64,000 nucleotides of DNA from an uncultured delta proteobacterium (GTDB taxonomy: Bacteria > Desulfobacterota > Zymogenia > Zymogenales > Zymogenaceae). How positions within the stretch are numbered: the first letter of the stretch is position 1; every line of letters starts with the position of its first letter. Made by a program: the position numbers. Positions 36,001 to 42,000 of the stretch are shown here, piece by piece. The DNA is taken from contig CAVTLK010000005.1 in the NCBI GenBank assembly GCA_963735595.1, forward strand, positions 1-64,000, in the 5' to 3' direction.

Positions 36001-39000
36001 AAACGGCGAAAAGGTGCTCGTCATCGGCGCCGGGACCATCGGCCTGGGGGTTATCCAGATCGCGAAGGCGCTGGGAAAGAGCTTCACCCTTTACGCCCTC
36101 GAAAAGATTCCTTTCAAAAAGAAGCTCGCGAAAAAGTATGGTGCCGACTACGTGCTTGACGGAGATCCGTATAAGGCCGTAGCCGCGGCCACGGGCGCCA
36201 GGCTCTATCGCGGGCCGCTCGGCAACAACACGATGCTGGGGGGATTTGACCTGATCTATGACTGCGTTGGTTACTCCGCCACCATCCACGATTCGCTGAG
36301 GTGGCTCGCGGCCCGGGGCGACTATATCATGATCGGAAACCAGCTCTCTCCCGTATCCTTTGACCAGACCCCGGTCTGGCAGCAGGAACTGACGATGAAG
36401 GGGATCAACGCCCACGGGTCGGAGACCTATCAGGGCAAGCGGATCAGCTCATTTGACCTGGCAATCGAGTTGATCAGGAAAAAGAAGATCAGGGTCGACC
36501 ATCTCATTACCCACCGGTTCCCGTTCGCCGACTACCAGGAGGCCTTCAAGCTGGCCAAGGAGAAATCGAGCGAGGTAATAAAGGTCGTGCTGAAGATATC
36601 GTAGCGGGCGTTTTTGTTTTCTCTGATCAGGGGGAATCACCATGAACAGGAGATCATTTACCAATCTTATTGTTCACTTCCTGTTTCTCCTCATTGCGTT
36701 CCTTTTCAATTATATCCCGTGGATACGGCGATACATGAAATCGACCCATGGTTGGATTAATTTTTCCGTCGGTTTCAGGACCGAAAACGACAGCGTCAAT
36801 CAGGCGATCCTCTTCAGGGACGGGAAAGTCTCGGTCATGAAGAAGATCCCGGATGATATCGACGTAACGCTGATCTTTGTTGACGACAAGACGGTTCTCG
36901 AGATGCTGAGAATAACGCCCAACGAGGTGATAAACCTGCTGTTGAAAAACAAGATGAGAACGGACGGCAACCTGACCTATTTGAACCCCTTCAATTTCTA
37001 CATCTCGCTGTTGTTCGGGAAGAAACACAAGAAGCTGCTCGGCAGGCAGGTGCGTGCGGAGCTCGCGGAGAACCGGCGGGTCTCACGGGAGGCCAACCCC
37101 GCGTGCCTCAACGAGCTTTCCCGAAGGAAAGGGACACGAATACGGGGGGAGCGGGTCGACACGGGCGTGCAGCATCTCGCGGATCCATACCTATCAGAGT
37201 ACGTAATCGATGATTTTCCCCGCCTCGGGGGGTTTCTGGATATCCACTTCAATACGAAGCCGGAGGTATGCCCGGAACGTCCGAAGCTCCTGACCGATTT
37301 CTTTGTCAAGAACGGTTTCACGCTGTTTCCAAATAACGGCGGCGGACAAAACGAGCTCCGCCAGGCCCGCGCATTCAAATACCTGATGGAGAACAAGACA
37401 CCGATCATCAGAAGAAACGACCTCGTGGCCGGCACTTCGACGACAAAGGAGATCGGAGTAATTCTCTACCCGGACGCCCACGCCGCGCTGTTGTGGGGGG
37501 AGCTGAAATCGGCGGCCGACAGGCGGTTGAATCCCTACACGATATCCGATGAAACGGTACAGATACTTCACGGCCACGTCCTCCCCTACTGGATGGACAA
37601 GAACTTCCGAGAGTGGGTCAGGAAGCAATACGGTAATCCGCTCAGCCAGCAATTAGATGAGCGTTTTGCGGTCTATTTCCTCTTCAAGATCGCCGCCCTC
37701 TCCCACACGATCCTGGATTTCCCGAAGCTCCTCAGGATCGGGACAACGGGGCTCATGAGGGAGATAGACGACGAGCTGAAACGAGACGCGAGCGCGTCCC
37801 GACAGAAAAGGGAGACGCTGGCGGCCATGAAAATCTGCCTCGAAGGCATCACGGGTTACGCGAAAAACCTGTCAAAACAGGCGGCCCGTCTGGCGGGAGA
37901 GGAAGGCGATCCCGTCCGCAAGGCGGAGCTCCTGCGGCTCTCGGCAATATGCGACCGCGTTCCCGAGAACCCCGCCCGGACGCTCGATGAGGCGGTCAAT
38001 GCCATCTGGATCGGCTGGGTGGCGCTCCACATGGAAAATACGAACGCGGGGCTTTCCCTCGGCCGGATGGACCAGTGGCTTCAGCCATACTTCGTATCGG
38101 ATATGAAGAAGCTCACGACCGAGAGGGAGAAAACCGAGTACATCAAAAAAGCCATCGAGCTGGTCGGCTGCTTCTACATGCGCTGCACCGACCATCTCCC
38201 GCTGGTGCCGGATATCGGGAACTACCTATTCGGCGGAAGCTCATCGGACCAGGCAATTACCCTGGGAGGCATGACCCCGGATGGGAAAGACGCCGTCAAC
38301 GACATGACCTACATCTTTCTCAAAGTGACCGAGATGCTGGCCATCAGGGACCCCAACGTGAATGCCCGCTTTACGCCGGGGACTAACAGCGATGAGTACC
38401 TCAAGCGGCTGTGCGAGGTGAACCTGATTACCACCGCGACGCCCTCGATGCACAACGACCATGCCGTGATGAAATCCCTCGAGGAACTCAACTATCGGCC
38501 CGAGGACCTTCGCGATTGGTCGGCGACCGGGTGTGTGGAGCCGACGATCTCGGGCAAACACATGGGGCATACCAACTGTATGATGATGAACATGGTGGCG
38601 GCGCTGGAAATGGCCCTGAATAACGGGCGTCACCCCCTCATGAGATGGGACGTGGGCCCTCAAACCGGCCGGATATACGATGACGGGAGCAACGGGGGAA
38701 ACGGCGATTTTAAGACATATCGAGGACTTCTTCAAGGCGTTCAAGACGCAGTTCAAATTTCTGATCGACCGGTCCGTTGAGTACAACAACATGCTCGGGG
38801 AGGCCCACAGCGTCATCCGGCCGACGCCGCTGTTGTCTTCGCTGATCAGCGGGTGCATTACCGGCGGGAAGGACGCAACGAGGGGCGGGCGCGAAATATA
38901 ATTCGTCCGGTTCGGCCTGTATCGGGTTGGCCGACGTGACCGATTCGCTGATGGTCGTCAAGAAACTGGTGTATGACGATAAGAAGATCACCTTTACGAA

Positions 39001-42000
39001 GCTCAAGGAAGCCATCGACGGCAACTTCGAGAATAATCCCTCTCTCCATGCCACGGTGACCAAGAAGGTAAAGCTCTTCGGAAGCGGGAGCCGCGAGGCG
39101 GTGGCGATTGCAAACAGCGTGACGACATTTACCCACGATACCTACTTCGCCCACAGGAATTTCAGGGGCGGGAGATACACGGCGGGCTTCTGGTCGATGG
39201 CAAACCATGTCGCGTTTGGGACGCTGGCGGGGGCGCTGCCCTCCGGGAGACTGGCGGGAAAGGCCTTTACCCCCGGCCTTACCCCTTCGCCCAACGCGAG
39301 CAATAATATCCTTGATAATATCAGGGACGTCGCACAGCTCGATCCGAAGAAGATGAACAACAATATCGCCTTTAACGTAAAGATAGTCCCGGCCATGACC
39401 CATAGCCACGAGAAGACCGTCGATATCATGCGTTCACTGGTAAAGACCTATTTTGACCTCGGCGGGATGCAGATGCAGCTCAATGTCGTGAATTCGGACA
39501 TGCTCAAAGACGCGATGTACCATCCTGAGGACTACCAGAATCTGCTTGTTCGGATTTCCGGATACAATGCCTATTTTGTAACGCTCAATAAGGACATGCA
39601 GCAGGAACTTATCGAGCGGGCGGAGTATGGAATATAGGATAGACCGGTAATGGAACACGTCTCATCAAACCATAACAAATCAGAGAGACATGCCGCATTG
39701 GTTAATCAGTCTCTCTGTCACGCTGACGAAATGCGGTTGCTATTGATCAGTCCTGATAACAAATAATCTATCATGGAGGCTTGCATGAAGGCATTGATGC
39801 TCAAGGGTATAGGCGACCTGGCGCTCATGGACGTCCCCGTGGCGCCGGTCGGGCCGCGGGACGTGAAAATCAGGGTGGCCGAGTGCGGGCTCTGCGGCAC
39901 GGATCACTCGGTCTACGCGGGGACGCTCGTGCTGCCGGGCGATTTCCCCTTCTACATGGGCCACGAGCTCTCGGGCATCGTGGAACAGGTGGGCGACCGA
40001 CGTGAAGGATATCGCGGCAGGGCCAGCTGGTCGTCACCAACCCGGTCCGCTACTGCGGCGACTGCTACCGATGCCGCAACGGCCAGCAGCACTACTGCGA
40101 GCGGCTCTTTGAGCTCTGGAGGCCCAACGGGGGCTTTTCCGAGTTCGTCGTGGCCGACCGCCAGCAGGTCTTCGCCGTACCCGACGGGATAAAACCGGAC
40201 GTCGCGGCGTTCGCCGAGCCCGTGTCGGTCTGTATCCACTGTGTCGACATGGCCGATATCAGACCCGGTATGTCGGTGGCCATCACGGGGGCGGGGTCTA
40301 TCGGCCTGATCCTTATGCAGCTCGCCCGGCTCTCGGGGGCGTCTCTCATCTTCGTGACGGAGCCGGTGGCCTCAAAGAGGAAGCTCGCCCAAAAGCTCGG
40401 CGCCGACGTCGTCGTCGATCCGACGACAGGAAGACGTGGTCGCTCAAGGCTTTGAGGCGACGGGATACAAGGGATTTGACGTGGTGATCGAGGCCTCCGG
40501 CAACGCCGCGGCGGCAAATCAGGCGCTGGGGATCACCGGGATGAAGTCGACGCTCTTTTTCTTCGCGGTCTATCCCGGCGGACTTTACGATTCCCATCTC
40601 GCCGTTCATCATGTACACAAAGGAGATGACGATCAAGGCGGTCTTCTTCTCCCCCTATACATTCCCGAGGGCGATGAACATGCTCCCGAAGCTTGATCTC
40701 GTTTCCCTGATCTCCCACCGTTTTACGTTGGCCGACGCCCACAAGGCGTTTGCAGCCCACGAGACAGGCCAAGCGGTGAAAGTCATGGTCAACTGCGCCT
40801 GAGGGAGAGGCTTATAGAACGATTGCATGATAGGGTCGCCAACATTATCAGAGAGGCTATCATCGTTGGACGGTGGCTCGACAGGCTGAGATCTCCTCGC
40901 GCTCGGATAGAAAGGAGGACATCGGTATGCACAAGGAAAGATTCTAAGTCGAAAGATGAGCTGCTGGACTATCTCGACGACAAGGCCGAGTGGCTCAGGA
41001 GGGAGATCATACGGCTGTCGTCCATCGCCGGCGGGTGCGCACCTCGGGGGCGGACTCTCTATGGCCGACATCATCGTGGCGGTCTACTATTACGCCATGA
41101 ATCTTGAAGCAGGGCGACCCGAACATGGGCCGATCGCGACCGCTTCATCCTCTCCAAGGGGCACGGCGCCATCGCCTATTGCCCGGTGCTGGCCGACCAG
41201 GGATTCTTTTCGCCCGACTGGCTCAACACCTTCAATAACCTCGACAGCCCCTTCGGAATGCACCCGGACATGAAGAAGATCCCCGGCTGCGACATGAGCA
41301 CGGGATCGCTGGGACACGGGCTTTCGGTGGCGGTGGGGATGGCGCTTACCGCCCGGATGGACAAGAAGAGCTGGCGCGTCTTTGTTCTTATGGGCGACGG
41401 CGAGATAAACGAAGGGATGGTCTGGGAGGCGGCGCCGTCGGCGTCCCACTTCAAGCTGGGCAATATCGTGGCGATCATCGACAGGAACACGCTGTCGCTG
41501 GACGGCCCCACCGAGGAGATCATGGCCATCGAGCCTATCGCCAAACGCTGGGAGGCCTTCGGGTGGCGCGTGTTTGATATCGACGGGCACGACATGGGAG
41601 CCCTCGTGGACACGCTGGACAAGCTCCCGCCGTCGTCCGATCCCACGCCCACCCTCATCGTCGCCCGAACGGTGAAGGGCAAAGGGCGTCGATTTCATGG
41701 AGAACAACCCTATCTGGCACTACGCGGGGCTGGACAAGGCCAAATCGGCCGACGCGCTTACCTGCATCGGGAACTGCCGCCCGAAAAGGAGGTCGTAAGA
41801 TGGCCGATGACGTACAAAAATCGATCGTTCTGGATTTCACCTATACGACCGACACCTATGACCAGTTTACCCAGGCCGAGGTCTACGGCAAGGTGATCAC
41901 GAAGATGGCCGAGGACAATAAAGACATCGTTGTCCTCACCTCCGACATGACCCGCTCCAACAAGACCGGGGATTTCAAGAAGACTTTCCCGGAGCGCTTC

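Follow-up and report, generated by a model that had tools for sequence, protein, structure and literature searches.

A glycyl radical enzyme with an SCP2-like domain as a candidate for breaking membrane-lipid head groups without oxygen

In a 64,000-nucleotide stretch of DNA from an uncultured delta proteobacterium (the window; its genome is called G000 here), a gene was noticed for a glycyl radical enzyme (GRE) whose N-terminus resembles the lipid-binding domain SCP2, which raises the question of what substrate such an enzyme attacks. The gene lies where the survey had placed it, as an open reading frame of 712 aa at 36642-38780 followed by one of 236 aa at 38927-39637. The Pfam PFL-like domain spans residues 205-678 of the first frame, and the second contains PFL-like and Gly_radical domains. 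The GRE is flanked in G000 by two alcohol dehydrogenases (Pfam), of which the upstream one matches L001:8497 of the closest relative at 88% from 35405 and keeps its position in the three relatives L001, L002 and L003. The promoter match ahead of it is not above chance, since five sigma70-like sites were found where 3.6 +/- 2.1 were expected. The features of the locus are the following.

35276..35304, + strand, sigma70-like promoter match preceding the first dehydrogenase (by consensus alone, 10/12 matches)
35405..36604, + strand, Zn-dependent alcohol dehydrogenase that opens the likely operon (Pfam ADH_N, ADH_zinc_N)
36642..37016, + strand, N-terminal SCP2-like domain, codons ~1-125, SCP2-aligned core ~31-114 (profile matches)
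37017..37211, + strand, charged and variable linker, codons ~126-190 (family alignment consensus; no solved GRE aligns)
37212..38721, + strand, GRE barrel, first piece, with K349, H355 (37704), A469/G470, D536 (38247), C631-V-E633 (38532-38540) and T644 (Pfam PFL-like; aligned pocket residues)
38722..38890, + strand, middle piece of the GRE gene, lying in a different frame and bounded by two insertions of one base each (97% identity to L001 residues 703-739)
38891..39637, + strand, C-terminal piece of the GRE with W850, M852, H855 and the glycyl-radical loop, G973 at 39560-39562 (Pfam Gly_radical)
39773..40799, + strand, second alcohol dehydrogenase of the Zn-dependent type, with a frameshift in G000 but intact (341 aa) in L001-L003
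40934..41795, + strand, transketolase N-terminal subunit, frameshifted in G000
41800..42795, + strand, transketolase C-terminal subunit

The survey described one gene split by an indel. It is indeed one gene, of about 997 codons, but it is broken twice, by +1 insertions at about 38722 and 38890, and the 56-codon piece between them is read in the third frame. Neither insertion is present in L001, L002 or L003; L001 has a single open frame of 997 aa, and the genes of L002 and L003 are broken at other places than that of G000. The first insertion is also absent from the contigs of four out of four public runs, and the second from those of three, the fourth having no coverage there. Of 34 G000 genes tested, 9 show frame changes. 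Because the relatives lack both insertions and G000 is indel-prone, both are probably assembly errors. Furthermore, dN/dS against L001 was 0.137 for the SCP2-like domain, 0.059 for the first GRE piece and 0.038 for the C-terminal piece, and the gene is under purifying selection. It is thus improbable that the G000 copy is a decaying pseudogene, whatever its substrate: such low ratios (0.04-0.14), the intact L001 gene, the differently placed breaks of L002 and L003, the lack of both insertions in the relatives' contigs and the frame changes in other genes all argue against decay. Apart from the insertions, decay is favored by the lack of an adjoining activase. As the survey had admitted, none adjoins the gene in G000, nor in L001-L003; four genomes of the lineage each yielded a single activase locus, which, where examined, neighbors a different GRE and falls outside the group of cognate activases, and neither in G000 nor in G001-G003 was a cognate activase found. 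However, the GRE adjoining that activase has a similar Gly loop, and cross-activation between GREs with similar loops is known (PMC13450708 section 2.5).

The family was followed through 79 GTDB loci and 80 metagenome loci (159 in all), and most of what the survey had said of it was borne out. Full-length fused forms of at least 950 aa predominate (65/79 GTDB and 66/80 metagenome loci), an activase (the family's activase scores over the TIGR02494 cut-off) lies within 10 kb in 45/79 and 67/80, respectively, and the gene is present in 4 of 10 genomes, namely G000 and three of the nine other genomes of its family. The reported link to a tungsten AOR stood in part: the AOR occurs in 15/79 GTDB and 7/80 metagenome loci, a link weaker than this raw count suggests because it comes mostly from one Desulfomonilia clade, with three other loci besides. 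Sediments, digesters and guts commonly harbor the family, intact members with activase exist, and small-genome gut Clostridia are among the carriers. It is a large family annotated as formate acetyltransferase and without a specific name, falling below every named GRE cut-off of NCBIfam (bits against cut-off: PFL2-3 499/678, HypD 411/1100, choline TMA-lyase 378/1050, HpsG 377/1000, HpfG 363/1000, IAD 265/1100, HPAD 203/1150, PFL 132/994) and below that of TIGR01774. Paper searches found no description of it.

That the protein is a single-gene GRE with a substrate pocket signature of its own, as had been claimed, is supported by an alignment of 68 rows. The PFL-like barrel was recognized by Pfam at E 4e-116, C631 is invariant, and the Gly loop R-I-S-G-Y, with the radical glycine G973 at window position 39560, is the same in 68/68 rows. 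The motif GCVEP, given as invariant, holds in all rows for GCVE, while the proline has one exception (67/68). H355, found in every row, aligns to His164 of glycerol dehydratase. His281, Ser282, Tyr339, Asp447 and Tyr640 of that enzyme are pocket residues, with positions counted from the alignment; in the family, H281/S282 give way to A(T)/G, D447 to N or G and Y640 to W, and the aromatic Y339 position is occupied by Asp (D536) in 62/68 rows. G470 and T644 are the same as in choline TMA-lyase at the aligned positions. The pocket is of the eliminase type (His, Cys-Val-Glu), with Asp replacing an aromatic residue of the known eliminases. The altered H281/S282 and D447 positions would leave room for a large substituent, and the Asp at the Y339 position, G470 and T644 may be amine-type features. 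The CXE motif is characteristic of eliminases and isomerases, and His164 serves as an acid (PMC13450708 sections 5.6, 5.7).

The N-terminal domain of the GRE is SCP2-like by family comparison: Pfam SCP2 was matched by 43/69 members at E<=1, the best E among fused members being 8e-5, and the family N-terminal profile found only three PDB sequences up to E 10, all of them SCP2 (E 0.003, positions 31-114). It was rightly conceded that the window gene's own N-terminus has no Pfam SCP2 match; it does match the family profile at E 6e-60. Solved GREs align only from about residues 188-197 onward, in agreement with the boundary of 190 put forward before. The domain also has homologues encoded by small genes of their own, located between a GRE and its activase, and one of these scores above the curated Pfam SCP2 cut-off; a profile of the stand-alone domains did not find SCP2 in PDB. 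The window protein alone shows no SCP2 similarity, and comparing it with the other SCP2 domain of the window did not succeed either. The resemblance appears weak but consistent at the family level, and the domain is kept across the clade, fused or as an adjacent gene. SCP2 is a general hydrophobic-ligand fold, and the best inference is that the GRE substrate is hydrophobic.

The neighbors of the GRE suggest a lipid head group. New here is an SDR resembling 3-ketosphinganine reductase in the GRE operon in 17/159 loci: an SDR of one subfamily, on the same strand and within 3 kb, was found in 3/79 GTDB and 14/80 metagenome loci (2 of the 14 being duplicates), spread over about five distinct tree branches. 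Among 120 listed relatives of this SDR, 11 are named 3-dehydrosphinganine reductase (JGI) and none bears another specific name; its profile matched 3-ketodihydrosphingosine reductase (TSC10) as 40th of 54 PDB matches, among the longest. The kinase-like DUF6206 lies within 2.5 kb of the GRE in 7/159 loci, accompanied in six by a class III PLP enzyme, all in one Actinomycetota clade; DUF6206 gave no PDB match and no paper was found on it. The PLP enzyme lacks the Gln-Gly-Glu and Arg of putrescine aminotransferase, which would be expected of a lyase-type enzyme. One operon of G000 itself (C2:437.7-442.0 kb) unites the PLP enzyme, DUF6206 and an SDR of that subfamily. Acyl-CoA ligase occurs in 20/159 loci and AOR in 22/159. 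An extended SDR, whose best NCBIfam match is HpnA, far below cut-off, is in the GRE operon in 3/79 GTDB and 16/80 metagenome loci, and in L103, L104 and L110 the GRE is followed by genes for a monoacylglycerol-lipase-like protein, a glycerol kinase and GlpD. The recurring neighbors are dominated by lipid-catabolic genes. An MMPL transporter and sulfatases were seen beside the GRE only in single branches.

At the genome level, a phylum sample of 301 genomes was compared, in which kin are not independent. The SDR was found in 11/19 GRE carriers vs 12/282 others, DUF6206 in 11/19 vs 10/282, the ceramidase family in 4/19 vs 3/282, and an alkyl-DHAP-synthase-like gene (PDB 2uuu, E 3e-76) in 16/19 vs 35/282; the SDR stood in the GRE operon in 3/13 core-family genomes of this sample. 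A TetR gene, 38% identical to the TetRs of GRE operons, comes after one of the ceramidase genes. Across 50 carriers, the synthase-like gene is present in 40, the SDR in 27, DUF6206 in 20 and the ceramidase in 16; in the 15 of these that are Bacillota, the SDR occurs only in L027 and DUF6206 in none, and the synthase-like gene reaches a high score in 6/15 vs 3/140 other genomes of one such family. The synthase-like gene often shares an operon with glycerol-3-phosphate dehydrogenase and an FGGY kinase. Where genomes lack the GRE, this SDR lies divergent from the synthase-like gene, so the SDR may act on ether lipids instead. Since the synthase-like gene tracks the GRE no less closely than the others do, such co-occurrence may mark lipid scavengers only.

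On this evidence the enzyme likely carries out a radical elimination at the head group of a long-chain lipid of some kind. We lean slightly towards a widespread GRE class, hitherto undescribed, that would take apart the head groups of membrane lipids without oxygen, either a sphingoid-base ammonia-lyase or an alkylglycerol etherase, with a fused or adjacent SCP2 module delivering the lipid. The best single explanation, at a probability of roughly 0.35, is a radical 1,2-eliminase for a sphingoid-type long-chain amino alcohol, giving ammonia and a 3-hydroxy fatty aldehyde. An activase would install the radical on G973, in trans in this lineage because none adjoins the gene. The alkyl tail would be gripped by the SCP2-like domain, which would pass the head group into the channel, where the C631 thiyl radical would abstract H from the terminal CH2OH and E633 would deprotonate that hydroxyl, so that the C2 substituent could leave. 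The leaving group would be ammonia, held by D536, or alternatively water, protonated by H355, if partner enzymes first swap the amine for a hydroxyl. The aldehyde would pass to the tungsten AOR or the alcohol dehydrogenases and on to acyl-CoA ligase and beta-oxidation. The invariant C631-V-E633 and H355, the SDR, DUF6206 and PLP partners and these aldehyde sinks fit such a reaction. However, the 3-dehydrosphinganine reductase label is an automatic name, H355 is a dehydratase residue where choline TMA-lyase has Asp, 142/159 loci have no such SDR beside the GRE, G000 has no match to a ceramidase or a cognate activase, and the 15 Bacillota carriers nearly all lack the SDR and entirely lack DUF6206.

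Cleavage of a C-O bond in glycerol-ether or long-chain vicinal-diol lipids is possible though doubtful, and comes close to the sphingoid reading because ether-lipid genes co-occur at least as well. A 1-O-alkylglycerol or 1,2-alkanediol would be converted to an aldehyde, or the ether alkoxide expelled by what would be an oxygen-free etherase. His355 and Cys-x-Glu are then as in glycerol and propanediol dehydratases (PMC13450708 section 5.6.1), and the synthase-like gene in 40/50 carriers, with its high scores in Bacillota, and the lipase-kinase-GlpD operon find a place. Yet the synthase-like gene was beside the GRE in 0/159 loci and its product would itself give a non-radical route for monoalkyl ethers, the operon represents one clade with a second, unrelated GRE next door in L097, L098 and L103, and the PLP enzyme and the Asp at 536 are left unexplained. 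An elimination or isomerization acting on some different greasy polyol (the side chain of a hopanoid or steroid, a surfactant or a diol bound to acyl-CoA, for instance) is unlikely: the generality of the SCP2 fold, the HpnA-like extended SDR, the MMPL transporter and sulfatases and the conservation of CXE in GRE isomerases (PMC13450708 section 5.7) would suit it, whereas hopanoid or steroid pathway genes do not recur among the neighbors scanned and gut Clostridia with small genomes are carriers. Slightly less plausible still is a small polar substrate, with the SCP2-like domain serving only to anchor the enzyme at the membrane, as a scaffold or as a gate of the channel, in the manner of succinate synthase small subunits. 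Small polar molecules are indeed the substrates of all characterized GRE eliminases (PMC13450708, a 2026 review, section 5.6), the SCP2 similarity is weak, there are GRE-free genomes that carry DUF6206 and the PLP enzyme, and the split transketolase of the window operon is typical of sugar catabolism; against it stand the retention of the domain across the clade under purifying selection and the mostly lipid-catabolic neighbors. A pyruvate formate-lyase, as database names have it, or a fumarate-adding alkylsuccinate synthase is very improbable, even though the best single-sequence PDB match, Archaeoglobus fulgidus PFL2, has been suggested to be alkane-activating (PMC8163825). One Cys is followed by Val-Glu, vs two adjacent Cys in PFL, whose model gave only 132 bits; MasD and TutD rank 29th and 30th of 37 PDB matches, and genes for small beta/gamma subunits do not recur nearby.

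To our knowledge, the anaerobic dismantling of sphingoid bases and glycerol ethers is largely open. If the proposal is true, an oxygen-free route for recycling membrane lipids, so far missing, would be at hand, used by sediment, digester and gut anaerobes living on dead biomass, and a new reaction class and a lipid-delivery design would be added to the radical enzymes; a sphingoid-base ammonia-lyase would be the second C-N 1,2-eliminase after CutC (choline trimethylamine-lyase) and the first on a lipid. The family is mis-annotated as formate acetyltransferase, and its operon partners narrow the candidate substrates to a short list. The text of the 2026 GRE review (PMC13450708) contains no SCP2, sterol or sphingo-.

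Compared with known systems, the family combines familiar parts. SCP2 proteins (1C44, 2C0L, 1QND; Pfam PF02036) are the only PDB matches of the N-terminal profile, and the GRE domain is distant from them and preceded by a hydrophobic helix. Amino-alcohol kinase and class III phospho-lyase pairs and the fumonisin aminotransferase deaminate amino alcohols without radicals; DUF6206 and the PLP enzyme resemble these, and adjoin the GRE or its SDR. A. fulgidus PFL2 (2F3O; E 3e-108), whose function is unknown (PMC13450708 section 4.4), has His and CXE in common with the family, but is 776 aa long without an SCP2 domain and differs in the pocket at 469, 470, 536, 645 and 850. CutC (9F3W, 5FAU), the sole known C-N 1,2-eliminase (PMC13450708 section 5.6.2), is the best profile match and shares CXE and the Gly and Thr at the aligned pocket positions, whereas the family has His for its Asp and Asp for its aromatic cap; no microcompartment genes are among the recurring GRE neighbors. 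Glycerol dehydratase (1R8W) and 1,2-propanediol dehydratase (5I2A) share with the family the GRE barrel, the Cys-Val-Glu loop, the His at His164, the Phe at the Phe333 position and a long activase with extra Fe-S clusters, while the family has A/G for H281/S282, D for Y339, N or G for D447 and W for Y640, and about 190 extra N-terminal residues including the SCP2-like domain.

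The glycyl radical enzyme (GRE) with a fused N-terminal SCP2-like domain lies at window positions 36642-39637 on the forward strand, where two open reading frames, 36642-38780 (712 aa) and 38927-39637 (236 aa), jointly span the PFL-like and Gly_radical models. Three-frame translation revealed that the gene is present in the source genome (G000) in three pieces, not two, and DNA alignment with the three closest genomes showed one surplus base near 38722 and another near 38890. The survey's finding of one gene split by one indel is thus right as to the single gene, with two insertions in place of one. 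The first insertion was absent in contigs from all four public runs and the second in three of them, the fourth having no coverage there; these contigs belong to relatives of the source strain, and no run contained half or more of the words of the GRE gene. In L001 (Ca. Zymogenaceae), one of the closest relatives' loci, the gene is a single open frame of 997 aa, and in L002 and L003 it is interrupted at positions other than those in G000. G000 is prone to indels: of 34 test genes taken from relatives, 9 change frame there, GRE neighbours among them (two of the nine being the same gene). Between G000 and L001, dN/dS was 0.137 for codons 1-125, 0.059 for codons 191-690 and 0.038 for codons 752-997. 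Judged from relatives rather than the source strain's reads, the frame breaks are probably assembly errors. A promoter and terminator scan gave sites at chance frequency.

The SCP2-fused GRE is a real, uncharacterised variant within a known superfamily, and probably carries out a new reaction on lipids. A GTDB genome scan found 155 relatives (79 loci retained) and a metagenome scan at least 551 (80 retained), with full-length fused forms at 65/79 and 66/80 loci. By record, the family is spread over Desulfobacterota, Spirochaetota, Actinomycetota, Myxococcota, SAR324, and digester and gut Bacillota. All 120 database relatives listed are 61-90% identical and carry the names formate acetyltransferase, PFL family or PFL/glycerol dehydratase family, in agreement with the annotation reported earlier. 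Pyruvate formate-lyase and succinate synthase identities were both rejected by motif and score, and the L001 enzyme falls under the cut-off of every NCBIfam GRE model. Related archaeal GREs were called succinate synthases on similarity to PFL2, according to the available part of one study (PMC8163825). No description of an SCP2-GRE fusion or a lipid-head GRE appeared in the literature searched, mostly freely accessible main text, and the terms SCP2, sterol and sphingo- occur nowhere in the text of a 2026 GRE review (PMC13450708). Tandem pairs of the fused enzyme were seen at L004, L006, L064, L076, L092, L108 and L132, with differing pockets where both copies are whole. Two full-length SCP2-fused relatives, P0065 (1007 aa) and P0097 (984 aa), have neither the catalytic Cys nor the Gly loop and are possibly pseudo-enzymes or scaffolds.

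Solved GREs align to the family only from about residue 188-197, close to the limit of 190 given before. At the N-terminus, Pfam SCP2 was matched at E<=1 by 43 of 69 aligned members; the N-terminal profile retrieved three PDB sequences only, up to E 10, all of them SCP2; and an Atlas feature search gave, as a lead only, a cluster at rank 3 with 16% SCP2 members. The G000 N-terminus on its own had no Pfam SCP2 match, so that the domain assigned to it in the survey stands by sequence at family level and not for this protein alone. Among 301 host-phylum genomes, the N-terminal profile matched in 35, comprising 13 with the core family, 6 with divergent fused forms only and 16 with small ORFs. Six of these last were inspected, and in five the small gene is placed between an 800-900-aa GRE, which directly precedes it, and an activase, which directly follows. 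Homology of the stand-alone proteins with the fused domain was established by hhalign (99.4%), and 7 of 22 match Pfam SCP2, one above the curated cut-off. The SCP2-like module thus travels with the enzyme, fused or separate. In the PDB, a profile of the stand-alone domain gave weak FtsH matches only and none to SCP2, and hhalign of the GRE N-terminal profile with the window's other SCP2 domain gave no match. Only 9/69 N-termini lie above hydropathy 1.6, and a transmembrane anchor common to the family was therefore rejected.

In G000 and L001-L003, the GRE lies between two Zn alcohol dehydrogenases, ahead of a split transketolase. Other features of the window and of G000 contigs C1 and C2 are as follows.

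Features of the window and of G000
Window 27797-30578 (L001:524-3295), minus strand: second SCP2 fusion, 6 kb from the GRE, joining SCP2, Gfo/Idh/MocA oxidoreductase and M24 peptidase/creatinase
Window 32148-35057, minus strand: LutABC-like genes for lactate utilisation, in divergent orientation to the GRE operon, absent from L001 at the same place
Window 42924-49145, minus strand: cluster of a fatty-acid-hydroxylase-family gene, DUF2064/glycosyltransferase fusion, flavoprotein disulphide reductase and DUF3641 radical SAM gene
G000 C2:437700-442000, minus strand: operon of class III PLP enzyme, small cupin-like gene (by eye), kinase-like DUF6206 gene (frameshifted), short-chain dehydrogenase (SDR, 3-ketosphinganine-reductase-like) and small membrane protein
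G000 C2:564400-567520, minus strand: another GRE (800 aa) with the only activase found in G000

The second SCP2 fusion is one 923-aa frame in L001 and frameshift-split in G000; its neighbours are a second M24 enzyme, a beta-keto acid cleavage enzyme, an SDR and a GntR gene. The cluster at 42924-49145, which we take to resemble arsenosugar-type clusters, had no linkage to the GRE in relatives. As reported, no activase adjoins the GRE in G000; none lies within 10 kb there or in L001-L003. In each of these four genomes a single activase locus was found, with 36-49% identity to the query; it adjoins another GRE where examined and groups outside the cognate activases. In G000 this other GRE is 45-47% identical to the second GRE beside the SCP2-fused enzyme in L097, L098 and L103, and its Gly loop is similar to that of the fused enzyme. 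Since cross-activation between similar Gly loops is recorded (PMC13450708, in part), activation in trans is plausible by analogy; alternatively, a cognate activase is possibly unassembled in G000 (93% complete). A further operon, at G000 C1:970650-979180 on the minus strand, holds an 806-aa GRE, an SDR and genes that by eye resemble CoA-transferase and acyl-CoA dehydrogenase; it also encodes a possibly SCP2-like protein of 148 aa, and no activase was seen there.

Neighbour genes were taken from our own ORF filter, the Pfam scan covering 139 of 299 candidates and then selected ones. The core cassette consists of TetR (25/79 GTDB and 29/80 metagenome loci), GRE and activase (45/79; 67/80). Of the two partners claimed earlier, the activase is thus upheld, and the tungsten oxidoreductase (AOR; 15/79 and 7/80) belongs mostly to one Desulfomonilia clade, as does an acyl-CoA ligase (12/79 and 8/80); in L038 and L042 the AOR lies within the GRE operon. 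At L048:13967 and L061:11027, an approximately 1,030-aa PigE-like aminotransferase fusion directly follows the activase, in a branch where the pocket is altered. A single subfamily of SDR stands on the same strand within 3 kb of the GRE at 3/79 and 14/80 loci, on about five tree branches, usually accompanied by an extended SDR (3/79; 16/80). It was further seen in G041, G082 and G177 of the phylum sample, by a search that scored 8 candidates per genome, may undercount and missed a frameshifted copy in G271. Eleven of the 120 SDR relatives listed are named 3-dehydrosphinganine reductase and none listed has another specific name; a PDB profile search did not confirm this label, with TSC10 40th of 54.

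A single Actinomycetota clade has DUF6206 (7 loci) and a class III PLP enzyme (6 loci) in divergent orientation to the GRE. By motifs in its alignment, DUF6206 would be a kinase; it had no PDB match and gave only DUF6206 or unnamed clusters in the Atlas. It nearly always adjoins the PLP enzyme, which is closest to putrescine aminotransferase without the Gln-Gly-Glu and Arg of the latter. Furthermore, G000 and three related genomes have DUF6206 next to the SDR and the PLP enzyme immediately upstream. Pairwise links among GRE, SDR and the kinase/PLP pair are thus seen in three separate lineages, and this triangle forms the main new evidence. By analogy with known pathways, an alpha-amino-ketone reductase, a kinase with a lyase-type PLP enzyme and a lipid carrier would together fit a long-chain amino alcohol as substrate. 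We assign a probability of about 0.35 to the GRE acting on such a compound.

An ether-lipid or alkylglycerol type of substrate is ranked only slightly below this; both readings would involve the same chemistry, with an aldehyde product in either case. GRE-negative genomes within one genus have this SDR in divergent orientation to a gene with alkyl-DHAP synthase as best PDB match (E 3e-76), and this synthase-like gene often occurs with glycerol-3-phosphate dehydrogenase and FGGY kinase, a set that looks like an ether-lipid route. It is found in 16/19 GRE carriers versus 35/282 others in the phylum sample, and in 40 of 50 carriers across phyla (50 of 76 loci, picked for diversity), of which 27 have the SDR, 20 DUF6206 and 16 the ceramidase family. 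Six of 15 Bacillota carriers have a close synthase copy, versus 3 of 140 further genomes from a single gut family, in none of which the GRE was found; the SDR occurs in only one of the 15 and DUF6206 in none. At L103, L104 and L110 the GRE is followed by a monoacylglycerol-lipase-like gene, glycerol kinase and GlpD. However, the synthase-like gene stands beside the GRE at 0/159 loci, versus 17/159 for the SDR. An ether-lipid marker co-occurs with the enzyme at least as well as the sphingoid markers do; the hosts may therefore be general lipid scavengers, and genome co-occurrence, which cannot choose the substrate, was rejected as proof.

The operon of synthase-like gene, glycerol-3-phosphate dehydrogenase and FGGY kinase recurs at L306-L325, L276 and L278, in gut Clostridia too, and is a candidate oxygen-free alkylglycerol route; at L312 an unrelated 833-aa GRE lies inside the synthase/FGGY kinase operon. 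At L287 (G082:C8), a neutral ceramidase is followed by a TetR 38% identical to those of GRE operons, an FGGY kinase, a class III PLP enzyme and a RuBisCO-like protein.

The pocket (L001 numbering) is very constant in a tree of 135 non-redundant GREs, in which one subclade, often the second copy of tandem pairs, has T469/G645/S646 and split forms have N or V at 536. In the fused variants L206, L207, L216 and P0060, H355 is replaced by Gln or Glu and position 469 is Asp or Ser, so that they probably act on another substrate. Over 68 rows, C631-V-E633, G973, K349, S354, H355, G470, T644, W850, M852 and H855 are invariant, as the survey had described for the Cys-Val-Glu motif and a pocket signature of its own. 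H355 is aligned to His164, the residue of glycerol dehydratase that gives a proton to the departing hydroxyl; in eliminases and isomerases, the substrate hydroxyl is deprotonated by the CXE glutamate (PMC13450708, in part). The available part of the same review has CutC as the only C-N 1,2-eliminase. Compared with glycerol dehydratase, the family has A or T / G for H281/S282, N (47/68) or G (21/68) for D447, and W for Y640. Y339 is replaced by Asp in 62/68 rows, at a position that we take to be equivalent to F340 of HypD. This aromatic residue binds the substrate in HypD (PMC7077986, in part). Choline TMA-lyase shares Gly at position 470 and Thr at 644 with the family, but has Asp in place of His at 355. 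The pocket is thus of eliminase type, roomier than those of dehydratases and with an extra acid.
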